Notes: generated by a model from the letters alone, not told the origin. 64,000 nt of DNA from a virus (IMGVR_UViG_3300049215_000519:1-64000); one strand, 5' to 3'. Positions 13,752 to 63,068 are shown, counted from the first letter of the stretch. Numbers and translations are program-made.

Positions 13752-13753
13752 TC

Positions 13754-14182: not shown

Positions 14183-14887
14183 CTAGCGCCGTCGACGACG
14201 CGCGCTCGCGTGGGAGAGGCCTTCCTGCATCAGCTGGATGGCCTCTTCGTACGTTTCGGGCATCGCCTCCGCGAACGCGTGGCTGAGCGCGACGTGGGCC
14301 GCCTTGATGGCGACGGCCTTCGCCGCGTTGTAGCCCTCGCCGACGCTCGGCATCGTGCCGTAGGCCCATTGCGATACGATGGATCGGAGAAGCTCGGACG
14401 TTGTCAAGCCTTCCGATTCGGCTCGCGTTCGGATCAGTGCCTCCAGGTCATCGGGTAGCCGTACAGCCATAGGTTGGGCCATTTTGACTCGTTTCAGGAT
14501 GTCAGACCGAGCTGGTAGACGTGTGCTCGATGATACTAGCCCGGCTCGGCCACGAGGCCAACGACCGGTCTCGGGGAGGACTAGCGGGCCTCTTCGCCCG
14601 TTCTCCTGGTTAGTAACTGCTTCCAAATGCGCAGGGTTACAACAACATTTGACCTTGCACAGATGATCGGTAACGAAGCCAACAGGAAATGGGCCTCTGT
14701 CAGCTGAGTAGCACATCCGATGAACGAACCGACCATTAAACCTGCCGTATCCCAAGTCGTTTAGGTTACCTAGCCACAACCAACATCCGCCCATAGGTTC
14801 CGGTAGGACATTTTTCCAAAACGATTTCGGCAATGTAGAGTCATACAACGTAAGCATCCAAAATACACCGTAAGCATTTGTATACAT
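14183..14887 (-). CDS. HNH endonuclease domain continuous in frame with an RHH (CopG/Arc-like) domain
   Basis: The N-terminal part has GYGRFNGRFVHRMCY....DHLCKVKCCCNPAHLEAVTNQEN (HNH_3-like) and is AT-rich. The C-terminal part from MAQPMAVRLPDDLEALIRTRAESEGLTTSELLRSIV (possible own start at 14482) is RHH-like and ends RRRRR. Confidence 0.55.
   Translation of the reverse strand: MYTNAYGVFWMLTLYDSTLPKSFWKNVLPEPMGGCWLWLGNLNDLGYGRFNGRFVHRMCYSADRGPFPVGFVTDHLCKVKCCCNPAHLEAVTNQENGRRGPLVLPETGRWPRGRAGLVSSSTRLPARSDILKRVKMAQPMAVRLPDDLEALIRTRAESEGLTTSELLRSIVSQWAYGTMPSVGEGYNAAKAVAIKAAHVALSHAFAEAMPETYEEAIQLMQEGLSHASARRRRR
14501..14521 (+). promoter_or_regulatory. GTCAGACC-N7-TANNNN element (orphan copy, antisense to the HNH/RHH ORF)
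   Basis: GTCAGACCGAGCTGGTAGACG, then 8 nt, then an ATG at 14530 that opens only a 27-codon ORF. Confidence 0.35.
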
Positions 14888-18545: not shown

Positions 18546-19362
<817 letters not shown>

Positions 19363-19366
<4 letters not shown>

Positions 19367-19713
19367 ACAAGCTCGAATCGCACGGCCTAGACAGGCTCAA
19401 GCATCGTATCGAGCGGCTGCGACGCCTTCTCCAGCTCGAGGCGCCTCCACTGATCGCGAACGAGATCCACATGATCGTCGACGCGATGAAGATGTACTCG
19501 CCAGAGGCCTGGTACAAGGCGCTCAAGCAATCCGAGATGCGCGCGCTCAAGCTCTCGTGCGGGTTCTGCTCGCAGGATGGTTGCGACGAGCGCCGCGACT
19601 ATGACGCCAAGGAGCTATCAGACATGTGCACCAAGCACATCGCCGAGTTCAACGAGATCGCCGAAGACTGCGAAGCTGTTCTCAGCGACGACGACATCGA
19701 GGGCATGTCATGA
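19363..19713 (+). CDS. Hypothetical protein
   Basis: ATGA overlap. ORF track entry. Confidence 0.6.
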
Positions 19714-19925
19714 CCCGCATCAAGCTCATCTGGCGCGGTCCGCGATACGGTGGCGCTCGCTACTACACCGACGGCACGCACGACTGGGGCCACGTGTTCA
19801 AGACAGACGACGGCGAGTGGGGGGCAAGCTGGGCAGGTGGCTTCAGCACGTACAAGACTCGCAAGGAAGCGATTGCTCGCGTCGAGCGAGAGGTCGCACG
19901 TCAACGCAGGAGGAAACAGCGATGA
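19710..19925 (+). CDS. Hypothetical small basic-tailed protein
   Basis: ATGA overlap at 19710. Ends ARQRRRKQR. Confidence 0.5.
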   Translation: MTRIKLIWRGPRYGGARYYTDGTHDWGHVFKTDDGEWGASWAGGFSTYKTRKEAIARVEREVARQRRRKQR

Positions 19926-20173
19926 TCATCATGGGTCTGTTAGCAGGCATCGCGATCGGTCTCGGAGTGCGAAGGCTGTACTACTGGCACGCGCTCAAGG
20001 CGCTGCATCTGAAGTCCGTCAACGTGCGCGACTACGGCGCGGTCGGCGATGGCGTGACCGACGACTCGGCCGCGTTCGCGGCAGCCAACCGAGTCGCCGC
20101 CGAGGAAGGCAAGATCACGTACGTGCCACCCGGCAACTACAAGCTCGGCCGCAAGATTCGGAGGCATCGATGA
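19922..20173 (+). CDS. TM-anchored fragment carrying only the N-terminal motif of pectate-lyase-fold depolymerases
   Basis: MIIMGLLAGIAIGLG is a TM segment. NVRDYGAVGDGVTDDSAAFAAAN is the hallmark start of beta-helix tailspike/pectate_lyase_3 proteins. The ORF stops after 83 aa. Confidence 0.5.
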   Translation: MIIMGLLAGIAIGLGVRRLYYWHALKALHLKSVNVRDYGAVGDGVTDDSAAFAAANRVAAEEGKITYVPPGNYKLGRKIRRHR

Positions 20174-25064: not shown

Positions 25065-25823
25065 ATGATCTCCCTAGGCGGCTCGTTTGCAGCCCTTCCG
25101 ATGATGACTCGAGCATCCGCCGCAGCACCCGCGATGGCACCAGCCTCACAGATCCAAAACACGCGACCGATCGCCCCGATGTTCACGCCCGCGCTGCTAA
25201 CCAAGGCGCCTGACGCGTCCCATCCGACGTTGTGCTCATCGCTGTGCCCGAACGCCAAGCTGCACTGCCAAGCCGACGGCACGTGCTTGTGCCCCTCGGG
25301 GCAGCTCTGCTACAACCCGCCTCCGTCGACGCTGCCGCCCCCACTATACACCGATCCAGCGGGGAATACATGTCCCCCGAGCGCGGTCGACGGCAGCGGC
25401 TACTGCCCGCAGCTCTCGAGCGGCACGCAGCATCCGTACACCGATCCCAACGGCGTGACCTGCTACCCCGACCAGCTCGACGGCTACGGCTACTGCCCGG
25501 GATCGCTGCAGCCCGCCACCGATGGTGGGGGCTACACCACGCAGCCCGTGCCGGTCTCGCCACAGCCGATCTTCGTGCCGCAGCCGCCGGTCTCTCCGCA
25601 GCCGATGTACACGACGCCCTCTGCGCCATCGCCCGACGACGGCAGCCAGTACGCGTCGTCGCAGGTACCCGCGCCCGGCATGCTCGTTCCGGTGTCGACG
25701 GCCTCGCCATACGCGTGGTCGCAGCTGTCGACGATGGCGAAGATCGCGGTCGTGCTTCTCGGGGTCGGCGTGGTCGGTGGCGGGTACTACATGATCAAGC
25801 GTCGGCGCAGGGCGGCTGCGTAG
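25065..25823 (+). CDS. Pro/Cys-rich tail-anchored protein
   Basis: Two YTDPxGxTC.P...DG.GYCP repeats and PQP-rich stretches. C-terminal TM helix (IAVVLLGVGVVGGGYYMI) then KRRRRAAA. Confidence 0.6.
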   Translation: MISLGGSFAALPMMTRASAAAPAMAPASQIQNTRPIAPMFTPALLTKAPDASHPTLCSSLCPNAKLHCQADGTCLCPSGQLCYNPPPSTLPPPLYTDPAGNTCPPSAVDGSGYCPQLSSGTQHPYTDPNGVTCYPDQLDGYGYCPGSLQPATDGGGYTTQPVPVSPQPIFVPQPPVSPQPMYTTPSAPSPDDGSQYASSQVPAPGMLVPVSTASPYAWSQLSTMAKIAVVLLGVGVVGGGYYMIKRRRRAAA

Positions 25824-26640: not shown

Positions 26641-26877
26641 CTAGACTGGGATGCCGTAGCGGATGCAGAACAGCTGAATCGCGAGCGCCATCGCCTTGGT
26701 GAGCGACGTGCCCACGGTGAGCGAGGCCGGGAAGCTGTCCTCGTGCAGCGCGCCCGTCGGATCGTAGCCACGCACGCGGACCTGCCACACGAACGAGGTG
26801 AGCCCGACCTGGATCTCGAGGCCGTGCCGCTGCATCAGGTCGGTGACCTGCTGCTCGTCGCTCATCACCACGATCAC
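26641..26877 (-). CDS. Hypothetical protein (last gene of the long minus-strand operon)
   Basis: ATGA-type overlap with the upstream gene. ORF track entry. Confidence 0.55.
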   Translation of the reverse strand: MIVVMSDEQQVTDLMQRHGLEIQVGLTSFVWQVRVRGYDPTGALHEDSFPASLTVGTSLTKAMALAIQLFCIRYGIPV

Positions 26878-27074
26878 TTTGGCTTGAGAACCGTCTGGAC
26901 CTTCATCGAGGTCTTGCAGAGCTTCTTCTTGCGGTTCCAGCGCGTCGTCGGGCAGCAGAGCACGACCTTCGTGCCATGCTCTCCGACGGCCTTCGTGCGG
27001 AATGAGCCGTGCGCGCAGTGGCTCGGACTGAACCTGCGCTCGCGGATGAAGTTCTTGGTGACGTCGCGCGGCAT
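26874..27074 (-). CDS. Small basic Cys-containing protein
   Basis: TGATG overlap. HCAHGSF...VVLCCP. K/R-rich. Confidence 0.55.
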   Translation of the reverse strand: MPRDVTKNFIRERRFSPSHCAHGSFRTKAVGEHGTKVVLCCPTTRWNRKKKLCKTSMKVQTVLKPK

Positions 27075-27349
27075 CAGCGTCTCCTCTTCATCACGCGCGA
27101 CACGCCGAGCGCGCCGAGCCCGAGGATGGCAAGCACCACAAGGCCCGTGGTGACGCCTGGATCGTCGCCGAGCCCCATCATAGAGGTACTCGCCTTGTCA
27201 ACGTAGTGCGTGAAGTGAAGATCGTCGACGTGAACCTTGCCGCCCTTCTTCGTGGGCGGAGGTGGTGGGGGTGATAGATCTCTGATGCTAGCCGCGAGAA
27301 TAATAGGGTACTCGATGATCGGAACGCCGAGGCCTTTGAGGATCATCAT
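27074..27349 (-). CDS. Tail-anchored protein, GLGD-TM-KRRR C-terminus
   Basis: Starts MMILKGLG at 27349. Has a PPPPPP stretch. Ends SMMGLGDDPGVTTGLVVLAILGLGALGVSRVMKRRR. Confidence 0.6.
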   Translation of the reverse strand: MMILKGLGVPIIEYPIILAASIRDLSPPPPPPTKKGGKVHVDDLHFTHYVDKASTSMMGLGDDPGVTTGLVVLAILGLGALGVSRVMKRRR

Positions 27350-27351
27350 GG

Positions 27352-27669
27352 TCAACGCCTCCGTCCCGCGCGGCCGAGTGAGCGGGGCTGCTTGAAGTAG
27401 GGATGCTGCTTCCAGAACTCGATCTTCCACTTGTGCGTGTCGTTGCAGGCCTTCGGCATCTTCTTGACCTTGCCGATGACCGTGAGATTGTTCGATTGGT
27501 AGACGCCGACGTGTGGATTCGACGAGTCGACCTTGTGCCCGGGATTGAACGTGCAGAGGACCGCTGAGCGCGTGTTCGCGCTCAGGACGATGGCCTTGCC
27601 GTGCTTGTACTTGCCGCGCTGCTCCCACTTATCGGGTCGCCGCACGATCTGGCCGCGCTTGAGCTTCAT
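27352..27669 (-). CDS. Small basic protein ending GRRR
   Basis: ATGA overlap. The terminal codons CGG AGG CGT contain the GGAGG SD of the next gene. Confidence 0.6.
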   Translation of the reverse strand: MKLKRGQIVRRPDKWEQRGKYKHGKAIVLSANTRSAVLCTFNPGHKVDSSNPHVGVYQSNNLTVIGKVKKMPKACNDTHKWKIEFWKQHPYFKQPRSLGRAGRRR

Positions 27670-27971
27670 CGACGCCTCCGTCGGCGCGCGCCGTCAAGCG
27701 CGTTGGCCGCACCCGTGATGCGTACGCAGTGATCGCTGAACGCGCCACCGGCCTCCGTGAGCGACGTCAGCGGCAGGTAGACATTGCCGCCCGAGCGCAT
27801 GTGAGCCTCGGCAGCGCCCTCAGCCCGCTTCATCTCGGCGTACGCGAGGTACGCGGCCATGCAGCGGCCCTCCTTCGAGAGCGACTTCACCGAGGCAGCC
27901 TCACGCTCGATCTTGGCCACCATCTGCTTGCCGGCGGCAGTGTGGGTCGCTTTGGGACTTCCGAACGCCAT
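27666..27971 (-). CDS. Small protein ending RRRRRR
   Basis: GGAGG lies 9 nt upstream of the ATG. The terminal Arg codons carry the next SD. Confidence 0.6.
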   Translation of the reverse strand: MAFGSPKATHTAAGKQMVAKIEREAASVKSLSKEGRCMAAYLAYAEMKRAEGAAEAHMRSGGNVYLPLTSLTEAGGAFSDHCVRITGAANALDGARRRRRR

Positions 27972-27974
27972 GGC

Positions 27975-28376
27975 TCAGCGCCTCCGCCGCTTGCGGAGCG
28001 GCTTCACGAAGTAGCCGCCAGCCTTGCTCGCGATCGCAGAGGCGACGCGCTTGGCCTTCGCCGACGAGTTGTAGACCCCGGTCTGCTTGCCGCGACCGAT
28101 GCCCTTGCCGATCGTCTGCACCTGGCAGTTCTTGAACACACCGATCTGGTAGTGCCTCGGGATGCTCTGGAACGCGCCTCGCCTCTCGCCGCCCTTGGAC
28201 TCGACGAAGTAGGTCTTGCCGCCCTTGCCGTGGCCCGCGGGGTAGACCGCGACCAGGCGAGCGTTGAAGAACCGCATCGAGCCCGGATCGAAGTAGTGCG
28301 AGCCGCAAGCCTTGGCCTGCGACTTCAGATCCTGCTTGGTGTAGGCAACTCCGCCGAGTCCTCGTCGTCGAGCCAT
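27975..28376 (-). CDS. Basic protein ending KRRRR
   Basis: GGAGG lies 8 nt upstream of the ATG. GSHYFDPGSMRFFNARL motif. Gly/Lys-rich. Confidence 0.65.
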   Translation of the reverse strand: MARRRGLGGVAYTKQDLKSQAKACGSHYFDPGSMRFFNARLVAVYPAGHGKGGKTYFVESKGGERRGAFQSIPRHYQIGVFKNCQVQTIGKGIGRGKQTGVYNSSAKAKRVASAIASKAGGYFVKPLRKRRRR

Positions 28377-28378
28377 GA

Positions 28379-28639
28379 CTAACGCCTCCGCTTGCGGCCA
28401 AAGAGGCCGCGGTGTCGAGCCATCGTCTCCGTCGAGATGTTGCCGGTCGACGCCATCTCACGCGAGAACTCGGCGCAGCCGGCCATGAGGCTCTTCCGCG
28501 CGCGCGCTCGCTCGGCAGCCGTGAACCGATGGCCCTTCGGGTAGTTCATCGAGTTGAGCGCGTGGCCGTGACGATCCCACAGGATCGCTGCCGGGCCGCT
28601 ACGCCCCGTGATGAAGGTGACCTTGCACTTGGCTTTCAT
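28379..28639 (-). CDS. Small protein ending KRRR
   Basis: Start MKAKCKV at 28639 overlaps the upstream stop (ATGA). The track ORF 28379..28861 is an extension. Confidence 0.6.
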   Translation of the reverse strand: MKAKCKVTFITGRSGPAAILWDRHGHALNSMNYPKGHRFTAAERARARKSLMAGCAEFSREMASTGNISTETMARHRGLFGRKRRR

Positions 28640-28803
28640 CGCTTGCGCCTCGACGCGAGGAAGATCCCGCCCGCGAGCCCGAGAACAAGCATCACCGGGT
28701 GCTCGATCGCTGGGTCGAAGATGCCCATCAGGCTCACGCGCGGCGCGCGCGGCCCGGAGAGCTGCATGACGTACTGAAGACTTCCTAGACTTCCTAGGGC
28801 CAT
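28636..28803 (-). CDS. 55-aa tail-anchored protein ending RRKR
   Basis: Not in the ORF track (<60 aa). MALGSLGSLQYV...SLMGIFDPAIEHPVMLVLGLAGGIFLASRRKR. Its SD lies in the upstream Arg codons. Confidence 0.5.
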   Translation of the reverse strand: MALGSLGSLQYVMQLSGPRAPRVSLMGIFDPAIEHPVMLVLGLAGGIFLASRRKR

Positions 28804-28806
28804 GGC

Positions 28807-29100
28807 TTATCGCCTCCGGCGATGGCCATGGAGCCCGAGGCGTTTCTTCGTCCACGGCCATGCGGTCTTGAGACCGAAGTAGCCAGCCCCGACCCCGACG
28901 ATCCCTACGAGCAGCGCCGAGACCCAGTCAGGGATCGGCGTGTCGCCGAGCCCGCTGAGCGTCGCCGTCGTGGGCACGCGGTTGTAGTAGTACGAAGCAT
29001 ACCCTCCGGGAATACCTGCGTAATATACGTAGGTCTTCTGGAGGGGGTTCATCGGGTCGTACTGGGCAGCTTGCTCCCACTGAGACAGAATCGTAGCCAT
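28807..29100 (-). CDS. Tail-anchored protein, GLGD-TM-RRRR C-terminus
   Basis: TLSGLGDTPIPDWVSALLVGIVGVGAGYFGL...HGHRRRR. Confidence 0.6.
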   Translation of the reverse strand: MATILSQWEQAAQYDPMNPLQKTYVYYAGIPGGYASYYYNRVPTTATLSGLGDTPIPDWVSALLVGIVGVGAGYFGLKTAWPWTKKRLGLHGHRRRR

Positions 29101-29190
29101 AGTCTAATCCTTTCGCGTAGAACGCGAAGAGCCGACGAGCTGATTCTCGCCTAGGGGTCGCCCGGTAGGCCCGCCCGTCGAGAGGCGGGT

Positions 29191-29292
29191 CTAGTGCTTG
29201 CGATGCTTCCGGCACTGCCCCTTGCGGCGACCACGGCGAACTTTCCCGAAGCGGCAATGCATCTTGCTGGAGTGACGACGACGACGAGCCAT
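29191..29292 (-). CDS. 33-aa protamine-like Arg/Lys/His-rich peptide
   Basis: MARRRRHSSKMHCRFGKVRRGRRKGQCRKHRKH. AAGGAG lies 7 nt upstream of the ATG. A GC hairpin (29170..29189) lies just downstream. Below the ORF-track cut-off. Confidence 0.45.
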   Translation of the reverse strand: MARRRRHSSKMHCRFGKVRRGRRKGQCRKHRKH

Positions 29293-29354
29293 GGTGAGTC
29301 TCCTTGGAGAGTTACGAAGGAAGCCTTGCATGCCACCACCACGGAGTCAAGCCG

Positions 29355-29480
29355 CTACCGTCTCCGCTGCTCCACCTGCCTCAGCTCGAGGTCGGTCACC
29401 CGTCTCTGGAGACGACTCACGTGCTCGGCGAGTTCCTTGGTGAGCTTGACCAGCTCTTGGATCCGGTCGGAGTCGGTCAT
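29355..29480 (-). CDS. 41-aa coiled-coil-like peptide ending QRRR
   Basis: MTDSDRIQELVKLTKELAEHVSRLQRRVTDLELRQVEQRRR. TGATG overlap with the upstream gene. Confidence 0.4.
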   Translation of the reverse strand: MTDSDRIQELVKLTKELAEHVSRLQRRVTDLELRQVEQRRR

Positions 29481-29695
29481 CAGTTCTCGAATCCTTCTGG
29501 GTCGGGCAAGCCCATCTTGCGGCGGTTCGCGATCACGAAGTCAACCAGCTCGGTCTTCTCGAATTTCTCGCACATCGGCAGCGTGTGAATCCCGACCGGC
29601 TCTCCGTGCTCGGTGCCGTCGTCGACGAACGCGAGCACGAGACGCGCGCCGCAGAAAGCGCAGACGGTGTCGACCTTGCCGAGCTTGAGCTTCAA
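29480..29695 (-). CDS. Small CxxC protein
   Basis: ATGA overlap with the LuxR-type gene. VCAFCGARL....LPMC. Confidence 0.55.
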   Translation of the reverse strand: MKLKLGKVDTVCAFCGARLVLAFVDDGTEHGEPVGIHTLPMCEKFEKTELVDFVIANRRKMGLPDPEGFEN

Positions 29696-29937
29696 AGCGG
29701 GCAGATCCCGATCTTCGCGAGCAGGCGAGCGAGCGCGACGTTGTTGCGCAGGCCCAGCTTCTTCAAGATGTGCCCGCGATGCGTGTCAACGGTCTTGACC
29801 GAGATCTCCAGCCTGTCGGCGACCTCACGATTGGTGTCGCCGTAGCCGAGACGTTCGGCGACCTGCCTCTCTCGAGTGGTCAACGCTGCGATCGGGCTCT
29901 GTTCGTCGGCGGTAGTTTCGGTCTCGTGATCTTCCAT
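29692..29937 (-). CDS. LuxR/GerE-type HTH transcription regulator
   Basis: LTTRERQVAERLGYGDTNREVADRLEISVKTVDTHRGHILKKLG. Start MEDHE at 29937, just after the dam stop. Confidence 0.75.
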   Translation of the reverse strand: MEDHETETTADEQSPIAALTTRERQVAERLGYGDTNREVADRLEISVKTVDTHRGHILKKLGLRNNVALARLLAKIGICPL

Positions 29938-29939
29938 GG

Positions 29940-30764
29940 TCAGCTCCTGATGAGTAGGCACTTCTTCTTGCCTCGTTGATCTTTGGTCGGGCCAACCGAG
30001 TGTCGCTCGTCGATCTCCTCGATCTTGGCCCAAGCGTAGATCTCTCGAATGAGGGGCGTGTCGCTATTGGTTGCCCAGATTCTACTTCCACGATACGCAA
30101 GCTGCTCGAGATCGGCAGCAAGGTCCCGCTGATCGTTCTCGTTGAAACCATCCTTGGTGTAGCCGGTGAACGTATCATGATACGGACAGTCGGCGTATAC
30201 GGCCACGCCACGGTTGAAGATGATCACATCGCTGTTGGCAAGTAGATCATGTGCCTTCATCGTGAAGAGCTGCACGGTCTGCAGCCAGCCATAGAGTCGC
30301 GCGGCTTCGTCGATGTCGATCGACGCGGGCTCCTTGAACTTGCCCCAGGGCACGTTGAAGAACCCTCTCGAGTTCGTGCGCCAGAGCCCGTTGTAGCAGC
30401 GCGCGTTGATGTAGAGGAAGAGCGCCGCACGGCGGAACCAGTACGGACATGGATCGAGGATTGATCGGTTCAGCTCGGCACGCGCGTCGAGGTAGCCTGC
30501 CTGCGAGTTGGGGTACTGCCGCACCACCCGCTCGAGTTCGGCGATCAGCGTCGTCGGCGAGCGCTGCAAGCAACGCCACGCATCCATGAGCGTCGTGTTC
30601 GTGTCGTTCAGGATCTTGGGAATCGAGTCCTTGATCGCGAGCGCGATCGCACCCCCGCCCACGAACGGCTCGACGTAGACTCGAGGCCCCATCTCCTCGA
30701 TCTCGGCAGCGACGCGCTCAGCGAGCCACCGCTTCCCGCCGGCCCATCTCGTGAACGGCTTCAC
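29940..30764 (-). CDS. dam: DNA adenine methyltransferase (Dam / D12 class)
   Basis: FTRWAGGKRWL, EPFVGGGAIAL (motif I), YADCPY (DPPY variant). Confidence 0.85.
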   Translation of the reverse strand: MKPFTRWAGGKRWLAERVAAEIEEMGPRVYVEPFVGGGAIALAIKDSIPKILNDTNTTLMDAWRCLQRSPTTLIAELERVVRQYPNSQAGYLDARAELNRSILDPCPYWFRRAALFLYINARCYNGLWRTNSRGFFNVPWGKFKEPASIDIDEAARLYGWLQTVQLFTMKAHDLLANSDVIIFNRGVAVYADCPYHDTFTGYTKDGFNENDQRDLAADLEQLAYRGSRIWATNSDTPLIREIYAWAKIEEIDERHSVGPTKDQRGKKKCLLIRS

Positions 30765-32347
30765 GGGATATTAACCTGCGTATCGTCGGCTTTGATCTCA
30801 ACGATCTTCCTAGAGAGCTTGCCAACTAGATCCATCCCGTCAGGCATGTCGACCCAGACCAACTCGTTGCGCGCGCGAGTAATTCCTACATACTCTACGT
30901 TAAATTCGGATTGCTCGATCGGCTTGGTCATCCACACCTCTCGAGGCTTGTGCCGTGCGAAGGTCTGCTTGAGCAGGTACACGCGGTCGGCCTCGAGCCC
31001 CTTAGCCTTGTGCACGGTCGACAAGATCGTCGTCGCCTCTTCGTTAGCGAGGATGTCAGCGAGGAGCTGCTTGAACTGCGTCGGCTCGGCGAAGGCCAAC
31101 ATCATCGAGAGCATCGCGTGCTGCTGCTCGACGCGATCAGCCCACGCAGTAGCATGAGCCTTCTCGGCCTTGGACATCTCGACCTGAAACCAGATCACCA
31201 AGCTCGACGAGAATCGCTCCTTGGACTTCTTGTCCAAGCGATCGATGATCTCGTAGAGCGGCTCGACGATCTCCTTGCCCGCCGCGAGCTGGAAGTTGAC
31301 CTTGGCCGACCACAAGGTCAGCGCTGCCATCAGGAGATCGGCGTTGGTGCGCGAGAGGACGAACGCGTCGTCAGCAGTCTGGAGATCTTCGGCCAGCCCG
31401 TGGAACGCAAGCTTGCGTACCTCACCCTCGCCAGCGCCCTCGCGAGGTCTCAGGCTGGGTACCAGCGTATTGGCTTGCTTGACGATCGCGCGCGCGCAGC
31501 GGAACGTCGTCGACAACGGTAATGTCTCGGCCTTGAACTCGGTGCGCAACTGGGTCCACACCAAAGAACCAACCGCGCCGCGCCAGTCATAGATCTCCTG
31601 GTTGCGGTCGCCGATCGCGAAGATGCGACCATTCGGCGCGATCATTTTCTTGACCAGAGCCAGTTGCGGAAGACTCAGATCCTGCGCCTCGTCGACGAAG
31701 ACAGCCTGGTAGCGGTTGGGGGGCGGAATCTCGAGCACGACCGGCAGCCATGTCATGTCCACGAAGTCGATCGGCACTACCGCTCGTGCTGCACCACGAC
31801 GCTTGAGATCGGCGCCCATCGTGTACGCGGCGACCACGACCCTCACGCACTTGCCGATGTCTTCGATGTCGAGCTTGCCGAAGTGGTTGTAGTTGTGTCC
31901 AGTTGCTTCGACCACGACTCTGGTGATCGCGCGTTCGGTGCAAGTCTCCTTGCACGTCCGCAACAGTTTCACCGCAGCGCGTCGCACCGCGAACGGGATC
32001 TTGGCCTCGAACTCGCCCGCGGCCTCGTTGACAAGCCGCTCGGTCGACTGCGGATCGACCTCGAAGCGGTAGCCACGTACTGACTTCAGGATACCAAGGC
32101 CGATCGCGTGGAACGTCTGCGACTTGAAGAAGTAGCCCTTGGGCGCAGGAGGCATTTTCTCCTCGAGATCGACGGCGTTACGCTTGTTGAACGCGCAGAA
32201 CAGCACCGAGCGTTGTGGGATGTACTTCAGGCTCTCGAGCGCCGTCGATGTCTTTCCCGCGCCCGCGAGCGCCTCGACGATGAGATTGCCCGCCCCGCGA
32301 TGCACGAAGTCGAAGATCGCACGCTGCTCTTCGGTCGGCTCTCTCAC
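30761..32347 (-). CDS. UvrD/PcrA-like superfamily-1 helicase
   Basis: GTG at 32347 overlaps the upstream TGA. AGAGKTS (Walker A), VFVDEAQDLSL (motif II), STVHKAKGLEADRVYL (motif VI). The 32617 start in the track is an extension. Confidence 0.8.
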   Translation of the reverse strand: MREPTEEQRAIFDFVHRGAGNLIVEALAGAGKTSTALESLKYIPQRSVLFCAFNKRNAVDLEEKMPPAPKGYFFKSQTFHAIGLGILKSVRGYRFEVDPQSTERLVNEAAGEFEAKIPFAVRRAAVKLLRTCKETCTERAITRVVVEATGHNYNHFGKLDIEDIGKCVRVVVAAYTMGADLKRRGAARAVVPIDFVDMTWLPVVLEIPPPNRYQAVFVDEAQDLSLPQLALVKKMIAPNGRIFAIGDRNQEIYDWRGAVGSLVWTQLRTEFKAETLPLSTTFRCARAIVKQANTLVPSLRPREGAGEGEVRKLAFHGLAEDLQTADDAFVLSRTNADLLMAALTLWSAKVNFQLAAGKEIVEPLYEIIDRLDKKSKERFSSSLVIWFQVEMSKAEKAHATAWADRVEQQHAMLSMMLAFAEPTQFKQLLADILANEEATTILSTVHKAKGLEADRVYLLKQTFARHKPREVWMTKPIEQSEFNVEYVGITRARNELVWVDMPDGMDLVGKLSRKIVEIKADDTQVNIP

Positions 32348-32692: not shown

Positions 32693-32994
32693 GCTTCTTC
32701 TGTATCACCTGAGTCTGACACCGCGTCGGGCTCCTTGAAGGCTGACTTGGTCTTCCCCACGTCGTAGCTCTCAAAGGCCTTGTTGACCCCGTCCAAGATC
32801 GCCTCTCGCCGGATCCCAGAGGCCTGCAACATGTCGATGCCAGCCCCCAAGAGCGTCACGCCGACGTACTCCGGCGACCAGCCCTTCTTGACCAGCCGCT
32901 TCGAGATGCGCATGATGCGCGAGTTGACCTCGACGAGGGCTTTAGCCCTCTCGAGCTGCTTGACGGTTCGTGCTGCGAGTTCAAAAACGTTCAT
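32689..32994 (-). CDS. Hypothetical protein
   Basis: ATGA overlap with the polymerase stop. ORF track entry. Confidence 0.55.
   Translation of the reverse strand: MNVFELAARTVKQLERAKALVEVNSRIMRISKRLVKKGWSPEYVGVTLLGAGIDMLQASGIRREAILDGVNKAFESYDVGKTKSAFKEPDAVSDSGDTEEA
32699..32719 (-). promoter_or_regulatory. GTCAGACC-N7-TANNNN element (variant GTCAGACT)
   Basis: Minus-strand GTCAGACTCAGGTGATACAGA, then 6 nt, then ATG at 32692. Embedded in the 3' end of gene 32689..32994. Confidence 0.4.
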
Positions 32995-35900
32995 ATGTCA
33001 CTCCATGCTTGACCGATGTCGACCTCGACGAGGAATTTCACCGTCTGACCGTTCGCCTCGTTGGTGTGCTCGTACGTGAAGCACTCGATGATGTCTTGCT
33101 TGACCGCTTCGGCGTCGTCAGCCCAGCACTCAAACACCGCAGCGTCGTGGATCTGCGCGATGCAGAAAGCTTCCTTATAGCGCACGAGCCGCTGGTCCAT
33201 CTTGAACATGCCGATGTTCATGATCGCAGCGCCAGTCGACTGCGGCACGATGCTGAGCGCTTCGGACGCTTCGACCTGGCCCATCGGCCACACGCGACGA
33301 CGGCCACCGACGAAATCTCTCAGCTCGTAGGGCGGCTGGCTCGCCATTTGAATCGTCTCGCGCTGCCAGCGGACGATGCCCTGCATTTTCTTGCGCAGCA
33401 CGTTGAGCGAGCCAACGACGTCCTGGAACTTGAACTTGTAGCCTTCCTGTAGAAGCCCCTTCCACACCTTGTCGTCGGAGGCGCCGTACCACGTTGCGTA
33501 TTCGAGGGTCTTGCAGACCGTACGGGCCATCTTCCGCTCGCTCGCTGTCTTGCCGTCGAATCCAGCGAAGACGACGCGTGCGCACTCGGTGTGAAGATCA
33601 CCATCACGGCCGAACACCTCGCACATGAACTCGTCGCCAGAGATCAACGCCAAGATTCGAGCTTCGATCTGCGCAAAGTCGAAGCCCACAAGCTTTCGAC
33701 CGGGCCTAGCGACTACCTGACGCTTCGTGGTTGGGCGCTCAGCGTACTCGATCCACCCAGCGATGTATTTGTGGTCGGAGTTCTTGTGCTCGTACTCGAC
33801 CTTCTCGCAGACCTTGCAGAGCACCTTGGTGATGATCGTATCCTTGTGAAGCTTGGTCTCGATCGGCACCTTCTTGGTCTTCTCGCGTGGCGCGTTAGAG
33901 ATGCCAAACGGCTCACTCGAAGCCCAACGACCGGAGATCTTGTGGATCGACCAGATCGGATGAATGCGATCGTTCTCGTCGGCGAAGCCGTGCTGGATGA
34001 TCTTGTCGCCGTCGATGCGGTCGAAGATCGGCCACACAAAATCGAGCATCTTGTTGTTCTGGCGATACGTCAGGATGCTCTGGACGATTGAATGGTCGAC
34101 AAGGCTCTCGAGTACTGACTTCTTCGTCGAGATAGCTCCACCCTCAGTAACCTGGATCAGCGGCACACCCATCGCCTGCAACAGCGATGAGATGTGCTTG
34201 CTGTTGTTGATCTTCCAGTTCCACTTGAAGCTATTGGTGTCGTCGAGCCGAGTGTTGTAGCGCGTCTCGAAGTCGTCGGAGTCCGCCTTGCGCTTTTTCT
34301 GGGCCAGCTGCAGCGCGAGGTGATGCCGCACAGCCTCAAGCGTCTTGGGGTCACGGGCCTGCGCCTCGACGGCGGCTCGCGAGTCCTTGGCGAGCCGCGT
34401 GAACGTGCGAACGAGCTGAGAATTGACCTCGCGGTCGATCGGGATGCCTGCGAGATGCATCCGACTTGCGATGTCGCTCATCCGCTTGTCGAGTTCGTAG
34501 ATCCGCTCGGTCTTGGTCTTGCGGATCCAGTGCATGAGCGGCGCAACGAGAGCTTGCGTTCCACCCGTGTCGAGGCCATTGTAGACGGCGAGCTTGTCGA
34601 GCGTCTCTTCCTGATTCCGAAACTCGGCCTTCCAAGGACCCGCACCGAAGAACTGCGAGACGACGTTCTGCAGACGATGAGCGTTGCCCGGGAACGCCGC
34701 GTGGTGCGCGAGCAGCGTATTACCATAAAAAGCTGGCTTGCCACGGCTACGGGTAATCAGAGTCTCGTTGGGGACCGAGAAACAGACGATGTGGTCATCG
34801 ACCTCGATCTTGGTCACCTTGCTGTTAGCGCCTGCGAGTCGAGTTCTGATGGGCACTGAAATCGGAACTGATCGAGAGATGAAGACATGACAGATGTCGT
34901 CTGGCCTGTAAGTTTTTGGGTTGGTGGCTGACCACCCAATCGACAGGGCTAAGGCCTGAACCCCATCAGCCAAGGCTTCAGATCCAGATCGATAGACAAA
35001 TCGTTGGGCTCGGCCTCCGTGCTCAGAGCCATCTCCAAGAAATAGGGCCTCCAAAAAGGTTTCTCGTGCCTCCTGAGACCACTGAAAAGCATCGGCGGGC
35101 AATTTTCTACTTCTAGAGTGACGGCCTAGTAAAGCAAACTCCTCCGCAATGGCGGGGTCGCTTAGGTCCCAAATCTCCTCGATAACGGGATGGTTTCTCC
35201 ATTCATCATCGTGAAGGTGCTCTCGCATGGTGAACTCAAAAGTTTTTGCGAGATGACGTAGAAGCTTTGAGGCATGACCATCTCGAGCTTGAGAGATCAT
35301 GATCGAACGGGGCTTGCCGTTGTAATAACTCAAGGCCCCATCCGCCAACCAAAGCCCCATCAGTTGCAGCTTGGCCAACTCCGGCGTTTTGCCCATCTTG
35401 GGCGGTTCGCAGGCTTGCTGAACCGCATACGAATCGGTTGAGCTATTCAGCATGTCAGCGGCTTTGGTGAAACCCCACGGGGCCATCGGCTTGCCTCGCC
35501 ACTCCTTGCTCGTGCGCCGTAGAGGCTGACACCACATACGGTGATTTGGCGTGACCACCGCTCTTGTATGATTGGTCTCAAAGATGAGGGCTTCGCCTTG
35601 ATAGTGACGGCTAGTCCTACTAAAAAAGCTCTGCCACTCCAGTTGGCCAGCCTGGTTCACGGTGGCTAGCAAGGTTCCAGCCTTGACATCTTCGTACTTC
35701 TTCCAACCAAGTTGAGTCAGGAACTCTGTCTCACTCTCGATGTAGCAATCTTCGAAGTTCTGGGCATGCTCGTCGACGCCGTAGCTCGGCAAGACGAAGC
35801 CGTACGCGCGCAACACCGTGCGATCGTAGAGCGCGTTGTGGTAGACCGTCGGCACGTTGCCGAGCACGAGCTGGAGATACGAGAAACACCAGTTGGGCAG

Positions 35901-37106
35901 CAGATCCCAGAGCACCGAGACGCGTCGACGCTTCGACGAGATGCCGATGACGCGGATCTTCGCGACGTAGGCCATGAGCGCGTGGTGGCGATCGACGTCA
36001 TCGACGTAGGTCTCGAGGTCGATCGTCACCTGGTTGTCGTCGATCGCGTCCTGCAGGATGTTCAACATCAGCTGCGCAGCGCGTTCGGGGTCGGTCAGCT
36101 CGTACTCGACGTCGAGCTTGAGCCGGATATCGCGGCCCTTTCCTAGTGCGTCGACTTTCCCTGCATCGTAGATGAGGTTGATGAACGCCATGTCCGGCGT
36201 GTGCGAACCACCAATGGTTGCGCCACCACCACGAAGCAAGGCTGCGGGGTGGATCGCCGGAATGACAGGGCGCACGCCAGAACCATCAACATCGACATCG
36301 AAGAGCGTCCCAACGATGTCGGTGATCTTGATCGGCTTTTTCTTGGTCGGCTTCTTGCCGACTTTCGCCTGCTTCGCAAGCTCCTTCTCCTTCTGCTTGG
36401 CGTGGTACTCGACGTTCGCGTCGGCTGTCGCCTTGATCCAGAGCTTCTTGTGATCGCGCTCGGTCTCCTTCTCAAGGTACTGCCTCCAGTTGCTAGGCTT
36501 CCTCTTATGGATGCGGATGCACTCGTGCTTGACCTGTTCCTGCCGAATCTTGAGGAGCTTTTTGAATCGGCGCGCCGCGATCTTCTCGATCGCTGCACTC
36601 TCGGCCTTGGCGTCCTTGCTCGCGGCCTTCTGTTTCTCCTTCTGTGACTTCTTCCTCGTCTTCGGTACATCCGGCGGGTCAATCGCGTCGAGCGATTCCT
36701 GAGGGATGATCGCGCGCGCGGCAACCGCGCCGAGCGTGAGCACGGGCTTGCCGGGAAACTGCGCCAGCTCGGCCGCGAGCCTCGGCTTGCAGCACGCTGC
36801 CGCGCGCTCGCGTTCTTCGACGGGCGAGCCCTGCGGCGGTTGGCAGAGCGTCGCGTAGCCAACGAATAGGTGATCACGTGGTCGGCCGATCTTGTGCAAG
36901 ATCTGGTTGACCACCTGACCCGATGCGCCGATGAACGGACGACCCTGCTTCGTCTCGTGGAAGCCCGGCCCCTCGCTGATCAAGATCCACAGCGGATCAT
37001 CGGGATACTCCGAGAACACCGGCCGCGTCGGTCCACCATGCGTGGAGAACGGGCACTCCTCGCATCGAGCCCCATCGCACGTGCCGCGGTTGAGCCCCTC
37101 GCCCAT
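32991..37106 (-). CDS. Family-A DNA polymerase with N-terminal UDG-family-4-like domain, intein-containing
   Basis: UDG-like: CEECPF, SEGPGFHETKQGRPFIGASG. Exo: IDLETY, NALYD. Pol: FDFAQIEARILA (motif A), KTLEYATWYGAS (motif B), IAQIHDAAVFE (motif C). K/E-rich linker. A 343-aa insertion follows NFED. Confidence 0.9.
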   Translation of the reverse strand: MGEGLNRGTCDGARCEECPFSTHGGPTRPVFSEYPDDPLWILISEGPGFHETKQGRPFIGASGQVVNQILHKIGRPRDHLFVGYATLCQPPQGSPVEERERAAACCKPRLAAELAQFPGKPVLTLGAVAARAIIPQESLDAIDPPDVPKTRKKSQKEKQKAASKDAKAESAAIEKIAARRFKKLLKIRQEQVKHECIRIHKRKPSNWRQYLEKETERDHKKLWIKATADANVEYHAKQKEKELAKQAKVGKKPTKKKPIKITDIVGTLFDVDVDGSGVRPVIPAIHPAALLRGGGATIGGSHTPDMAFINLIYDAGKVDALGKGRDIRLKLDVEYELTDPERAAQLMLNILQDAIDDNQVTIDLETYVDDVDRHHALMAYVAKIRVIGISSKRRRVSVLWDLLPNWCFSYLQLVLGNVPTVYHNALYDRTVLRAYGFVLPSYGVDEHAQNFEDCYIESETEFLTQLGWKKYEDVKAGTLLATVNQAGQLEWQSFFSRTSRHYQGEALIFETNHTRAVVTPNHRMWCQPLRRTSKEWRGKPMAPWGFTKAADMLNSSTDSYAVQQACEPPKMGKTPELAKLQLMGLWLADGALSYYNGKPRSIMISQARDGHASKLLRHLAKTFEFTMREHLHDDEWRNHPVIEEIWDLSDPAIAEEFALLGRHSRSRKLPADAFQWSQEARETFLEALFLGDGSEHGGRAQRFVYRSGSEALADGVQALALSIGWSATNPKTYRPDDICHVFISRSVPISVPIRTRLAGANSKVTKIEVDDHIVCFSVPNETLITRSRGKPAFYGNTLLAHHAAFPGNAHRLQNVVSQFFGAGPWKAEFRNQEETLDKLAVYNGLDTGGTQALVAPLMHWIRKTKTERIYELDKRMSDIASRMHLAGIPIDREVNSQLVRTFTRLAKDSRAAVEAQARDPKTLEAVRHHLALQLAQKKRKADSDDFETRYNTRLDDTNSFKWNWKINNSKHISSLLQAMGVPLIQVTEGGAISTKKSVLESLVDHSIVQSILTYRQNNKMLDFVWPIFDRIDGDKIIQHGFADENDRIHPIWSIHKISGRWASSEPFGISNAPREKTKKVPIETKLHKDTIITKVLCKVCEKVEYEHKNSDHKYIAGWIEYAERPTTKRQVVARPGRKLVGFDFAQIEARILALISGDEFMCEVFGRDGDLHTECARVVFAGFDGKTASERKMARTVCKTLEYATWYGASDDKVWKGLLQEGYKFKFQDVVGSLNVLRKKMQGIVRWQRETIQMASQPPYELRDFVGGRRRVWPMGQVEASEALSIVPQSTGAAIMNIGMFKMDQRLVRYKEAFCIAQIHDAAVFECWADDAEAVKQDIIECFTYEHTNEANGQTVKFLVEVDIGQAWSDI
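34719..35747 (-). mobile_element. LAGLIDADG-type intein in the exonuclease region of the polymerase
   Basis: Starts CYIESETEFLT and has a TPNHRMW (TxxH-like) block. Dodecapeptide motifs LMGLWLADGALS and FLEALFLGDGSEHG. Ends KPAFYGN followed by Thr. The extein joins as NFED|TLLAHH. Lower GC. Confidence 0.85.
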
Positions 37107-49782: not shown

Positions 49783-49823
49783 GACCCAAGGCTACCACTT
49801 CGACGGCGGGTTAAGCTTCGTGC

Positions 49824-50532: not shown

Positions 50533-51297
50533 TTGACCGATGGTACCAAGGAGGTTAGATCGGGAACCATGCCAAGAGCCAGAATCCGCGTGACCGCCAT
50601 TTCAGATACCTCGGTGACCCTAAATACTGTGGACGTGCCACGAGAGCTGTGGAACATCCTGGAACAGTGGGGATCCCTTCAGAGATTGAGCGCCAACCAA
50701 TCCTTTTGGATCTTCATGCTCAAGACCCTTACCGCAATCAAGAAGCGGAACCCGGCGTTCGAGGAGATCACGGCCGCATGTCATATGGGCCGCGAGAAAG
50801 CCATGGCGGATGAGGAGGATCGATCTGATCCTCAGGCAGTCAAGGCAAGGGATCTACCGCCGGTAGAATCCTACTACGACCTGCTCGAGACGAACGACAA
50901 GGCTGCGAGCGGATTCGTTGGTGTCTACCAAAACGGCAAAGCGTTCAGGGCGTCAGCCCCAAGGCCTGATGGACGTGGCAGTCGGAACGCGGTGAATGTG
51001 GGTACCTACGAAACCCCAGATCAAGCTGCGTTAGCCCGCCTGCTCTACTACCGGAAGCACAAGCTGATTTACGGTCGGCACGCCTTTGAGATCACAAGGC
51101 ATCAACAGATGCTCCATGAAATGGGTCGGACGGACACAACTTTCGAGGAGGCTCTTGAGTCCTTGAACGAGGCACGTGAGATGCGAGGCCAGGTGCGCAT
51201 CGAGATAGCAGACAACTGGCTTCTGTACATCGGAGAGAGGCCGACAGCGCTACTGGAGTTGCCTAGCGACGACGGCGCCGACGCTGCTTCTTCATGA
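50533..51297 (+). CDS. AP2-domain DNA-binding protein
   Basis: SGFVGVYQNGKAFRASAP.....VNVGTYETPDQAALARLLYY fits the AP2/integrase DNA-binding fold pattern. The start is uncertain (TTG 50533 or ATG 50569). Confidence 0.5.
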   Translation: MTDGTKEVRSGTMPRARIRVTAISDTSVTLNTVDVPRELWNILEQWGSLQRLSANQSFWIFMLKTLTAIKKRNPAFEEITAACHMGREKAMADEEDRSDPQAVKARDLPPVESYYDLLETNDKAASGFVGVYQNGKAFRASAPRPDGRGSRNAVNVGTYETPDQAALARLLYYRKHKLIYGRHAFEITRHQQMLHEMGRTDTTFEEALESLNEAREMRGQVRIEIADNWLLYIGERPTALLELPSDDGADAASS

Positions 51298-51538
51298 AGC
51301 GGTAACCGCCGTAGCCAAGCGCGCCGACGAGCGCGAGCAGGCCGAGCGTCTGCGTGGTCGACAGCGACGAGAGATCACCAAGGCCGGCGACGCCACGCAC
51401 GCAGCCTGCACAGCCGAAGGCGTTGCGCACGGGATGCATGTACGGGACGCCTCCGGTCTGGATCGGCGGCAGGCCAGTCGGCTCGAGGAACGAGCGGGTC
51501 AACGCGTCGGGCGTCATCCCCGTAGAGAGGATCATCAT
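51263..51538 (-). CDS. Tail-anchored protein, GLGD-TM-RRRRRR C-terminus
   Basis: GVAGLGDLSSLSTTQTLGLLALVGALGYGGYRFMKKQRRRRRR. TAGCAT-N6-ATG. The 3' end overlaps the AP2 gene by 35 nt. Confidence 0.6.
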   Translation of the reverse strand: MMILSTGMTPDALTRSFLEPTGLPPIQTGGVPYMHPVRNAFGCAGCVRGVAGLGDLSSLSTTQTLGLLALVGALGYGGYRFMKKQRRRRRR

Positions 51539-58291: not shown

Positions 58292-58311
58292 GTCATGAGC
58301 CTAACACGGAT

Positions 58312-58850: not shown

Positions 58851-58858
58851 GAGTCACC

Positions 58859-59287: not shown

Positions 59288-59302
59288 CGTGGGTAACCTT
59301 TG

Positions 59303-60823: not shown

Positions 60824-60843
60824 GCGGCAAGGCTACCACGTAG

Positions 60844-61176: not shown

Positions 61177-61214
61177 GCAGAGCAGGCTACCACGCTGTGG
61201 TAGGCTTGTGCCAA

Positions 61215-62447: not shown

Positions 62448-62469
62448 AACGTGTGGTAGGCTCGGGATC

Positions 62470-62730
62470 ATGCAACGGAAGGCCAGAGGATTACGGTGTG
62501 GGGTTGGCGAGAAGCGTTTCACCGTCGTGCAGGTCGGCAATGATCCGGGCGACTCTCATGCTGGTCGGTCGTTCCAGGACGCGATGGAGCTGGCGATGCC
62601 CGATCGTGGATCGCACGTGAACGTCTTCGTGACGTGCGCTCGAGATGGCGGTGAAGCCAGAATGCCGTACAACTACAGGTCACGAGGCAAGCTCGTGCGT
62701 TCGTTCCGAACCAAGCGAGGTGGCTCATGA
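62470..62730 (+). CDS. Hypothetical protein
   Basis: TAGGCT-N7-ATG at 62470. The stop overlaps the next ATG (ATGA). In-frame tail of ORF 62056..62730. Confidence 0.45.
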   Translation: MQRKARGLRCGVGEKRFTVVQVGNDPGDSHAGRSFQDAMELAMPDRGSHVNVFVTCARDGGEARMPYNYRSRGKLVRSFRTKRGGS

Positions 62731-63068
62731 GATTCGCACGTACATCGCTCGGGCTCATCCCCGACTGGCAGTTCTCGACGGATCCAGCCGTCAACCTGAA
62801 GATCAACCCGCACGTTCAGTATCCTGCGGGCGTGTACCAGACGACGTCTCAGCCGCTCGGGCCGTACTACGGTGGCTCCGAAGGCCGTGGTGAAGGTCTT
62901 GGCTACACGACGCAGCGGTTCGCGAACATGAAGTTCCCGGCGCGAGGCAGCCTGCTCGGGCTCAGCGATCTTTCGTCGACGCAGATGACCGTCGGCGCGA
63001 TCGCGCTGCTTGGCGTCGCGGCGGTGGCGTGGAACGTCCTCGGCAAGAAGAAGCGTCGTCGGCGATGA
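62727..63068 (+). CDS. Tail-anchored protein, GLSD-TM-KKKRRRR C-terminus
   Basis: SLLGLSDLSSTQMTVGAIALLGVAAVAWNVLGKKKRRRR. The tail is homologous to that of 51263..51538. Confidence 0.55.
   Translation: MRFARTSLGLIPDWQFSTDPAVNLKINPHVQYPAGVYQTTSQPLGPYYGGSEGRGEGLGYTTQRFANMKFPARGSLLGLSDLSSTQMTVGAIALLGVAAVAWNVLGKKKRRRR

Follow-up and report, generated by a model that had tools for sequence, protein, structure and literature searches.

Unrelated small proteins of an uncultivated virus lineage share a basic terminal tail whose codons also carry the ribosome-binding site of the next gene

Short basic protein ends and ribosome-binding sites written into an upstream coding sequence are both known from described systems. 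Operons coupled by termination and reinitiation resemble the locus reported here in their cistron gaps (-4 to +3 nucleotides, nt) and in a Shine-Dalgarno (SD) sequence that lies 5-9 nt upstream of the start, inside the upstream coding sequence. The sorting signals of the LPXTG/sortase, PEP-CTERM/exosortase, and GlyGly-CTERM/rhombosortase systems are tripartite and consist of a motif, a transmembrane (TM) helix, and a terminal Arg/Lys cluster. A disordered terminal poly-Arg segment is found in the C-terminal domain of the hepatitis B virus core protein, in the capsid arms of circoviruses and nodaviruses, and in adenovirus proteins VII and mu, while the capsid targeting sequence of the T4 internal proteins and the cargo-loading peptides of encapsulins are short terminal peptides common to unrelated proteins. 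The positive-inside rule accounts for basic clusters placed immediately after a TM helix. Here, we describe an operon on the minus strand (29480 to 26641) of a 64,000-nt stretch of virus DNA (IMGVR_UViG_3300049215_000519:1-64000; this whole stretch is called the window), in which most of the small and otherwise unrelated proteins end in a run of Arg and Lys residues, and we compare it with these systems. In the literature on SD sequences and C-terminal Arg, polyarginine phage proteins, DUF7447, Arg-rich packaged proteins, and tail-anchored actinophage proteins, we found no description of this pattern.

The operon comprises ten closely packed small cistrons and one open reading frame (ORF) of 33 amino acids (aa). 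Eight of the ten cistrons carry a C-terminal run of three to six Arg/Lys residues, and the tails, read from the sequence, are QRRR, HRRRR, RRKR, RKRRR, RKRRRR, RRRRRR, GRRR, and KRRR. The same ten cistrons, with lengths of 41, 97, 55, 86, 133, 101, 105, 91, 66, and 74 aa, are obtained from an independent pipeline (the public copy of the contig), and they score 0.17-0.40 per codon for codon usage, close to the long genes (0.27 ± 0.07). The original prediction, made from the DNA of this window, had reported such runs on eight of ten consecutive cistrons, and the ORF calls, the independent pipeline, and the direct reading of the tails all agree with it. It had also stated that the protein bodies are unrelated, which BLASTP supports, since no similarity was found between any two of the operon proteins.

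We called the genes of the window with a self-trained codon-usage caller, which gave 107 genes, and defined a tail as a terminal run of three or more Arg/Lys residues. The frequency count that had been proposed along with the prediction gave 11 tail-bearing proteins among the 107, where 0.25-0.40 would be expected from the rate of internal runs; shuffling each protein 2000 times gave 0.24 on average and never more than 3. The tails are confined to proteins of at most 150 aa (11/67 small versus 0/40 large proteins, p = 0.006). With the same caller, no tail was found in Streptomyces phage phiC31 (0/54), mycobacteriophage L5 (0/90), or Pseudomonas phage JG054 (0/59), giving 0/203 for the three high-GC controls (Fisher p = 6e-6 against the window). 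These phages are similar in composition, with a GC of 0.58-0.64, 5.7-6.8% Arg, and 4.4-4.9% Lys, and L5 is tail-free although 58 of its genes are small and densely coupled. The enrichment of tails is far from chance, and the absence of tails from the controls indicates that they are not general to high-GC phages with coupled small genes.

Relatives were reached through homologues of the DUF7447 protein of the operon (27975-28376) and are represented by the loci L002/L003, L004, L007, L008/L009, and L010. All of them share the layout of the polymerase, in most cases the UvrD helicase, and the methylase, followed by the operon. Their operons open with an orthologue of gene 28807, which has a TWEQ motif, a TM helix, and a basic tail, and include a DUF7447 gene; which genes lie between and beyond these two anchors, and in what order, varies from genome to genome. 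In the window and five relatives, 27 of the 43 genes in the syntenic operon are tailed (63%), compared with 12 of the 161 genes elsewhere (7.5%). A basic tail is present in 6/6 orthologues of 28807. The tails of the DUF7447 orthologues vary and are always basic (RR, RRRRR, RKRRRR, RKRKRK, and KRKKAKR), and all 12 of the 12 orthologues of 27352 (53-87% identity) end in (S/A)-L-(A/G)-G-x-[RK]2-8 with an invariant Leu98. In general, orthologous tails exchange Arg and Lys and differ in length. Orthologues or homologues were also located for 28379 (L007 5245-5430), for 27666 (L008 1784-2086, ending SLSGPRKRHR), and for 51263, a tail-bearing gene outside the operon, whose homologues P0013-P0015 retain KKHRRRRRR. 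An apparent cassette indel between L003 and L002 was rejected, because the identical DNA is present in L002 and the gene was merely uncalled there. Searches of INPHARED by megablast and tblastn gave no close relative and no match for DUF7447, and the UvrD protein shared only ~30% identity with proteins of Pseudomonas and Xanthomonas phages in this database. Scans of IMG/VR with UvrD and with the DUF7447 alignment, and of GTDB with DUF7447, found nothing, and a scan of the JGI metagenomes with DUF7447 found one short locus only. The trait is conserved across a deep, uncultivated virus lineage, a point that the original prediction had missed.

The Arg codons of the tails carry a second layer of information. 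The arrangement CGG-AGG-CGN-stop had been counted at six junctions; it is exact at four (genes 28807, 28379, 27975, and 27352), and a fifth, at gene 27666, contains an extra codon and reads CGG-AGG-CGT-CGA-stop, giving five GGAGG words instead of six. These words lie on the minus strand at 28813-28817 (in the 28807 tail at 28810-28821, 9 nt ahead of the next ATG), 28385-28389, 27981-27985, 27675-27679, and 27358-27362, each 5-9 nt ahead of the next ATG. Two further coupled junctions use GAGG (after 28636) and AGGAG (after 27074, embedded in AAG AGG AGA CGC). Of the SD words that lie 5-9 nt ahead of the internal operon starts, five are GGAGG, one is GAGG, and one is AGGAG, and the start of 26641 has no such word. 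The gaps among the nine cistrons from 29100 to 26641 are -4, -1, +2, or +3 nt. Counted from the stop, codons -2 and -3 are where AGG and CGG accumulate, and codons -1, -4, -5, and -6 use ordinary CGN, which indicates that two codons per tail are shaped by the SD. The proposal that the Arg codons serve as the SD of the next gene therefore holds for two codons, and the SD is written into these two tail codons wherever a cistron follows in the operon.

The SD cannot fully explain the tails, as had been suspected from the start. A pooled set of 224 genes, drawn from this genome (the window and locus L011) and five non-redundant relatives, includes 41 with a basic tail. The association between a tail and a coupled junction is weak (odds ratio 1.9, p = 0.12). 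An SD-like word occurs in 24/28 coupled tails, 13/41 tails have no coupled downstream gene, and 11/41 contain no SD-like 4-mer; L008, for example, has the SD-free, Lys-rich tails KTKRKKAKR and KKKIRKRRRKR. The tails thus extend beyond the GGAGG-bearing junctions, a point on which the prediction had been declared open to refutation. Elsewhere in the window, genes 41170 and 42060 translate an embedded GGAGG as Gly-Gly and genes 1306 and 52446 as x-Glu, and the last operon gene of L003 (7246-7485) reads it as Leu-Gly-Gly and has no tail; the SD therefore does not force Arg. In addition, many ATGA-overlap junctions in the window lack any SD. Between the uncoupled 51263 tail and its counterpart in the related contig L012, three of the six Arg codons are synonymously different and the peptide is still RRRRRR. 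We conclude that selection has maintained the tails as a peptide feature specific to this lineage.

The run is often part of a longer module, which, like its mirrored N-terminal counterpart, had escaped the original prediction. Directly ahead of it, [L/M]-x-G occurs in 13 of the 38 tails that lack a preceding TM helix and in 9 of 29 families, against a background of 2.7%, with varied codons in such examples as GLSGLRRRRRR, ALSGPRRRKRRR, RGLFGRKRRR, and ALDGARRRRRR. A membrane form consists of L-x-G-[LIVP]-[GF]-D, one TM helix, and the basic run (27074, 28807, 28636, 51263, 62727, 58312, and relatives). Many proteins also show a mirrored N-terminal form, M-A-(K/R)-R-(K/R)..R-G-L-x-G, and in both orientations the charge lies at the free terminus with G-L-x-G toward the protein body. 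This mirrored order reads as protein logic and would not be expected of a direct DNA repeat. Across the proteome, GL[x]G and GL[GS]D words number 24, compared with 5.4 ± 2.5 in shuffles.

The protein encoded at 27975-28376 belongs to DUF7447 (PF24239), also represented by phrog_4655, with 31.0 bits against a gathering cutoff of 24.1. A profile search of 1.8 billion representatives yielded 149 further DUF7447 proteins and 170 relatives at E <= 0.001. In the DUF7447 superfamily (161 members), 31 have a basic C-terminal tail, 44 have a basic N-terminus, and 106 have neither; the two basic ends co-occur (odds ratio 8, p = 1e-6). Because most members lack basic ends, the ends are lineage-specific additions to domains that exist without them. 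Several distant tails read GGLSGARRRRRR, and N-termini such as MAKRRRRGLFG are found. In the distant relative L096, the gene ahead of the DUF7447 member closes with a TM helix followed by KRLKQRR; the sequence of the junction is CAG CGG AGG TAG GCC ATG GCG AAG CGT CGA CGA CGA GGG CTG TTT GGC.

The AlphaFold model of the DUF7447 protein (predicted local distance difference test, pLDDT, 70) contains a helix, four strands, and a helix, and that of the 27352 family (pLDDT 84) shows an SH3-like small barrel and a helix; both DUF7447 termini and the 27352 tail are predicted to be disordered, with a pLDDT below 50. The very basic tailed proteins have isoelectric points (pI) of 10-11.7, and the soluble operon proteins still have a pI of 10.4-10.9 when their tails are removed. 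Three operon proteins are predicted single-pass membrane proteins, and a TM helix lies just ahead of the tail in 27074, 28636, 28807, 51263, 62727, and 25134. Searches of the operon proteins and the tailed membrane proteins against Pfam, PHROGs, and NCBIfam returned only DUF7447/phrog_4655 and no known sorting domain. The part comprising the TM helix and the Arg run gave sub-threshold NCBIfam matches to NPXTG (E = 0.1) and LPXTG_anchor (E = 0.46), and by eye the N-termini of the membrane proteins (MATILSQWEQ, MMILKGLG, and MALGSLGS) are unlike signal peptides.

The locus differs from the described systems in several respects. In contrast to other coupled operons, the SD of this operon is always in the Arg-Arg frame inside a longer basic run, and the run is also present without an SD or without a downstream gene. 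At least seven window proteins combine a motif (L-x-G-L-G-D/G-L-S-D), a TM helix, and a terminal Arg/Lys cluster, as in the tripartite sorting signals; however, the motif differs, no curated model matches (best E = 0.1-0.46), N-terminal signal peptides are not evident by eye, and L-x-G with the basic run also occurs without a TM helix and in mirrored, N-terminal form. The Arg-rich virion core proteins find a parallel in the disordered poly-Arg ends and in the protamine-like 33-aa peptide of the same locus. The processing sites of adenovirus pVII and pre-mu are (M/L/I)-x-G-G, which the L-x-G beside the run may recall. Unlike the Arg-rich capsid tails, the runs here belong to about ten unrelated small proteins that are encoded beside replication genes, in a prokaryotic virus whose translation is led by SD sequences, and the tail-bearers include no capsid protein. 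The tails share with the T4 and encapsulin targeting peptides the placement of a short terminal peptide on unrelated proteins, but they have no sequence resemblance to them, their run length is very variable, and no shell protein has been identified. Topology control, one of the roles suggested in the original prediction, is plausible for the TM-bearing subset, in which the basic cluster immediately follows the helix as the positive-inside rule would have it, but it does not cover the soluble tail-bearers 27352, 27666, 27975, 28379, 29355, and 14183, and runs of 6-7 Arg exceed the needs of topology.

We favor, with a probability of about 0.55, the interpretation that this lineage possesses a polycationic terminal module on which selection acts at the peptide level, the SD being carried along on the tail and the free cationic end acting as a tether. 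The module is a short polycationic extension, predicted to be disordered and joined to the protein body by Leu-x-Gly or by L-x-G-L-G-D and a TM helix, and it is carried by many unrelated small proteins, for which a single conserved operon downstream of the replication genes is the main site. Since Arg can be spelled as CGG-AGG, a strong GGAGG fits inside the tail; this spelling puts the GGAGG for the next cistron in codons -3/-2, and the ribosome-binding site would ride on the tail rather than cause it. Through their free cationic ends, the proteins may be tethered to a polyanion: DNA or RNA in the case of the basic soluble proteins, which have a pI of 10-11.7 and include one with an SH3-like barrel, and the cytoplasmic face of the membrane in the case of the single-pass membrane proteins, where the run would serve as a positive-inside anchor. 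Several points weigh against this interpretation. With its conserved Leu-x-Gly beside the run, the module looks more like a site of specific recognition (for docking or cleavage, for example) than one of generic electrostatics. The p-values of the [L/M]-x-G enrichment (~1e-8 to 1e-11) are optimistic because the motif was defined after the data had been seen. The module is common to soluble and membrane proteins, which a single tether function explains only loosely. In searches against the PDB, the DUF7447 model had no match, and the 27352 model showed only a weak resemblance to MazF/Kid, KOW, and ribosomal proteins (E >= 0.1). Moreover, the gene calls outside the operon come from our own simple caller.

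The main alternative, possible though doubtful, is that the module is a sorting or processing signal. A factor of the virus or the host would read it and deliver the unrelated proteins to a shared site, for example the inside of the virion, the viral DNA, or a compartment induced by the virus; cleavage at L-x-G by a protease may also free the cationic peptide. Capsid targeting in T4, the cargo peptides of encapsulins, and the processing of adenovirus pVII/pre-mu would be the parallels. The retention of Leu-x-Gly beside the run in unrelated families and the mirrored arrangement at both termini fit such a signal better than generic electrostatics, and the enriched GL[x]G/GL[GS]D words, the lineage specificity of the trait, and a retropepsin-like protease encoded by the relatives L002 and L003 are consistent with it. 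However, no protease gene was found within the window, the tails are very variable in length and composition for a docking peptide, and Leu-x-Gly could be just the last hydrophobic contact followed by a hinge. The operon also adjoins PolA, UvrD, and Dam and not recognizable virion genes, a position that lends no support to the suggested co-packaging with DNA. More broadly, and tentatively, a deep and uncultivated virus group, probably actinobacterial, may use a lineage-specific addressing or processing code that has C-terminal, N-terminal, and TM variants, is perhaps cleaved at L-x-G, and also carries the coupling signal. Its cargo would be a changing set of unrelated small proteins, all sent to a single location such as the viral genome, the interior of the virion, or a compartment that the virus builds.

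Other explanations account for less of the evidence. The tail could be a stability or turnover tag, which either protects from C-end-directed proteolysis or, as a MuA-like ClpX signal, determines when early proteins are removed. Bacterial protein degradation depends on C-terminal residues, and the basic C-terminus of MuA (RRKKAI) is a substrate signal for ClpX; the restriction of the tails to small proteins and the early or middle position of the operon behind the replication genes would suit such a tag, but it leaves the mirrored N-terminal module and the TM-plus-tail variants unexplained, and we consider it unlikely. That the tails are a by-product of translational coupling, in which GGAGG forces Arg-Arg and further Arg arises through slippage or a purine-rich initiation region, is more unlikely still. 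The correctly spaced GGAGG at five operon junctions, the enrichment of AGG/CGG at codons -2/-3, and the SD-like word in most coupled tails are what this explanation predicts, and yet a pure by-product is largely excluded because uncoupled and SD-free tails exist. Furthermore, the extra codons CGT, CGC, CGA, AAG, and AAA are not SD-like, the uncoupled 51263 tail keeps its Arg residues through synonymous change, coupled junctions of the window often lack an SD or contain it in the form of Gly-Gly or x-Glu, and control phages with densely coupled small genes are tail-free. Least probable, and very unlikely in our judgment, is that the junction (..CGN CGG AGG CGN stop NN ATG GCG AAG CG..) is a boundary for recombinational cassette shuffling, with the protein ends as its footprints. 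Gene content and order between the 28807-family and DUF7447 anchors differ in every relative, and the junction is formulaic even in the distant L096; however, nucleotide identity between junctions covers only about 8-10 nt while the tail codons vary freely, the mirrored order of the N- and C-terminal forms is not that of a direct DNA repeat, tails also occur at isolated gene ends, and the sole apparent cassette indel (L002 versus L003) was a missed gene call.

If the polycationic module is a functional tag, it would provide a sequence handle for a class of otherwise unannotatable small phage proteins, amounting to 63% of the conserved-operon genes, and experiments can ask where the tagged proteins go. 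The tail is also an unusually clean case of natural dual coding, in which a peptide signal and a ribosome-binding site share the same codons and are separable by synonymous recoding. The lineage is barely known, so anything that organizes its proteome is informative.

The block directly upstream of the operon consists of replication genes, namely a family-A DNA polymerase (32991-37106, minus strand) that has a UDG-like N-terminus and carries a LAGLIDADG insertion, a UvrD helicase (30761-32347), and a Dam-type methyltransferase (29940-30764), together with a GerE/LuxR-type helix-turn-helix protein (29692-29937). The polymerase has 1371 aa compared with 961-1029 aa in the relatives; its N-terminal domain belongs to the UDG superfamily, and its extra ~350 aa include a LAGLIDADG_3 match at residues 683-732, probably an intein or a homing-endonuclease insertion.

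The features of the operon itself, all on the minus strand, begin with a 41-aa coiled-coil-like cistron (29355..29480) that ends in QRRR (CGG AGA CGG TAG). It has no tightly coupled gene downstream and is separated by 62 nt from the ORF of the protamine-like 33-aa peptide MARRRRHSSKMHCRFGKVRRGRRKGQCRKHRKH (29191..29292), which is followed by a GC-rich hairpin. This peptide contains about 60% Arg/Lys/His and two Cys, and it has a homologue in L010 (2687-2785); a 48-aa ORF of the same genome (L011 4855-5001) may be a paralogue. A promoter/terminator scan and RNA folding of the 29100-29200 spacer gave nothing above shuffles. The first gene of the conserved operon (28807..29100) encodes a 97-aa protein with the TWEQ N-terminus, L-S-G-L-G-D, a TM helix, and KKRLGLHGHRRRR. 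The next is a 55-aa membrane protein (28636..28803) with LMGIFDP, a TM helix, and SRRKR, and its stop overlaps the following start (ATGA). It precedes an 86-aa basic soluble protein (28379..28639; pI 11.7) that ends in RGLFGRKRRR and the 133-aa DUF7447 protein (27975..28376), MARRRGLGG...KPLRKRRRR, whose N- and C-termini are both basic and predicted to be disordered. A 101-aa protein ending in NALDGARRRRRR (27666..27971), the stop of which overlaps the following start, is followed by a 105-aa basic protein (27352..27669; pI 11.0), predicted to be an SH3-like small beta-barrel with a helix and ending in SLGRAGRRR. The 91-aa membrane protein at 27074..27349 contains MMILKGLG..., MMGLGDDP, a TM helix, and SRVMKRRR. 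The last two cistrons have no terminal run: a 66-aa basic protein (26874..27074; pI 10.8) ends in LKPK, and an acidic protein of 74-78 aa (26641..26877; pI 5.4) closes the operon, where plus-strand genes converge on it.

Outside the operon, the tails predicted at 51263, 62727, 19710, and 19922 were confirmed. The 91-aa membrane protein at 51263..51538 (minus strand) contains VAGLGD, a TM helix, and KKQRRRRRR, with Arg codons CGT CGG CGC CGT CGT CGC, and its downstream neighbor is convergent. At 62727..63068 (plus strand), a 113-aa membrane protein contains LLGLSD, a TM helix, and GKKKRRRR; the next gene overlaps it (ATGA), and the tail, AAG AAG AAG CGT CGT CGG CGA, has no SD word. Two overlapping cistrons at 19710..20173 (plus strand) end in RQRRRKQR and RKIRRHR, both with GGAGG in the Arg frame. 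The tail assigned to an ORF at 14183..14887 is real, but the ORF more likely encodes a soluble protein of 56 aa (14183..14353, minus strand) than one of 234 aa; it ends in GLSHASARRRRR (CGT CGT CGA CGG CGC) with no co-directional gene downstream. Similarly, the KRRRRAAA tail reported for 25065-25823 is present, but the start is more likely at 25134, which gives a 229-aa Pro- and Cys-rich protein (25134..25823, plus strand) with a C-terminal TM helix and IKRRRRAAA; its LPXTG-anchor-like match in NCBIfam is only faint (E = 0.46). A further tail claimed at 56194-56490 is ambiguous because plus-strand ORFs conflict with it. A cluster of Cys-/Pro-rich proteins, each having a single TM helix at the C-terminus and a short basic terminus, lies at 57617-61176 (minus strand) and 62727-63256 (plus strand). 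Several of them start with M-M-(I/F)-(L/M)-G-L-(S/G)-D, as in MMFLGLSGLGDY, MMIMGLSDY, and MYFGLSSGRRF, and similar starts are seen in L002 (15932-16591, MIFMGLGDTP) and L004 (10381-10806, MVFLGLGRGG).

In ~73 kb (the window and L011 1-9516) of the 85-kb contig, Pfam and PHROGs recognized no capsid, portal, terminase, or tail genes; the genes that are present encode, among others, an integrase, a GH25 endolysin, ThyX, and sugar-modifying enzymes as well as a full set of replication proteins. PDB sequence searches with two large unknown window proteins and a search of Rfam found nothing. ARAGORN predicted one tRNA-Ser(cga) at 738-817 (plus strand) inside thyX (485-1309), which is probably a false positive. 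The locus L012 1-9935 (contig Ga0137409_10009407) is syntenic with the window from 53.4 to 44.1 kb, and its homologue of window 44132-45760 has 318 aa versus 542 aa in the window. Its GC rises after position 7000 from about 0.55 to 0.70, and the high-GC part contains two Liv-type ABC ATPase genes with best GTDB matches in Actinomycetota (55-59% identity). L012 could be a copy that has integrated or decayed within a high-GC host, or else its assembly is chimeric.

A TGGTAG(G/C)CT box was observed 6-8 nt upstream of the SD-less starts of genes 49093, 59303, 60844, 61215, and 62470. Copies lie at 49789-49797, 60830-60838, and 61184-61192 on the minus strand and at 61198-61206 and 62454-62462 on the plus strand, with weaker copies at 58298-58306 (minus strand) and near 44132. 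With one mismatch allowed, there are 29 matches, compared with 12.4 ± 3.4 in shuffles. The box looks like an extended -10 element (TG-n-TAnnnT) driving leaderless mRNAs, which are common in Actinomycetota, and together with the L012 junction it tentatively suggests an actinobacterial host.

Other starts in the window are preceded by repeats. The pair 45941-45962/55922-55943, ACCCATCGAGTA(A/C)AACTGA(A)GG, lies directly ahead of the GTG starts of 45963 and 55944, and the pair 15756-15771/17314-17329, CCAAGGACAACACCCC, lies directly ahead of the ATG starts of 15772 and 17330. Tandem paralogues of 144 and 142 aa, which are 70% identical and both end in AYLDVMTQGGIG, are encoded at 13317-14182 (plus strand). 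A near-pure Gly ORF (MGGGGGGGGEGG...GGGVGGGGGGGVD) with a high coding score at 18994-19317 (plus strand) is either a real Gly-rich protein or a composition artefact.

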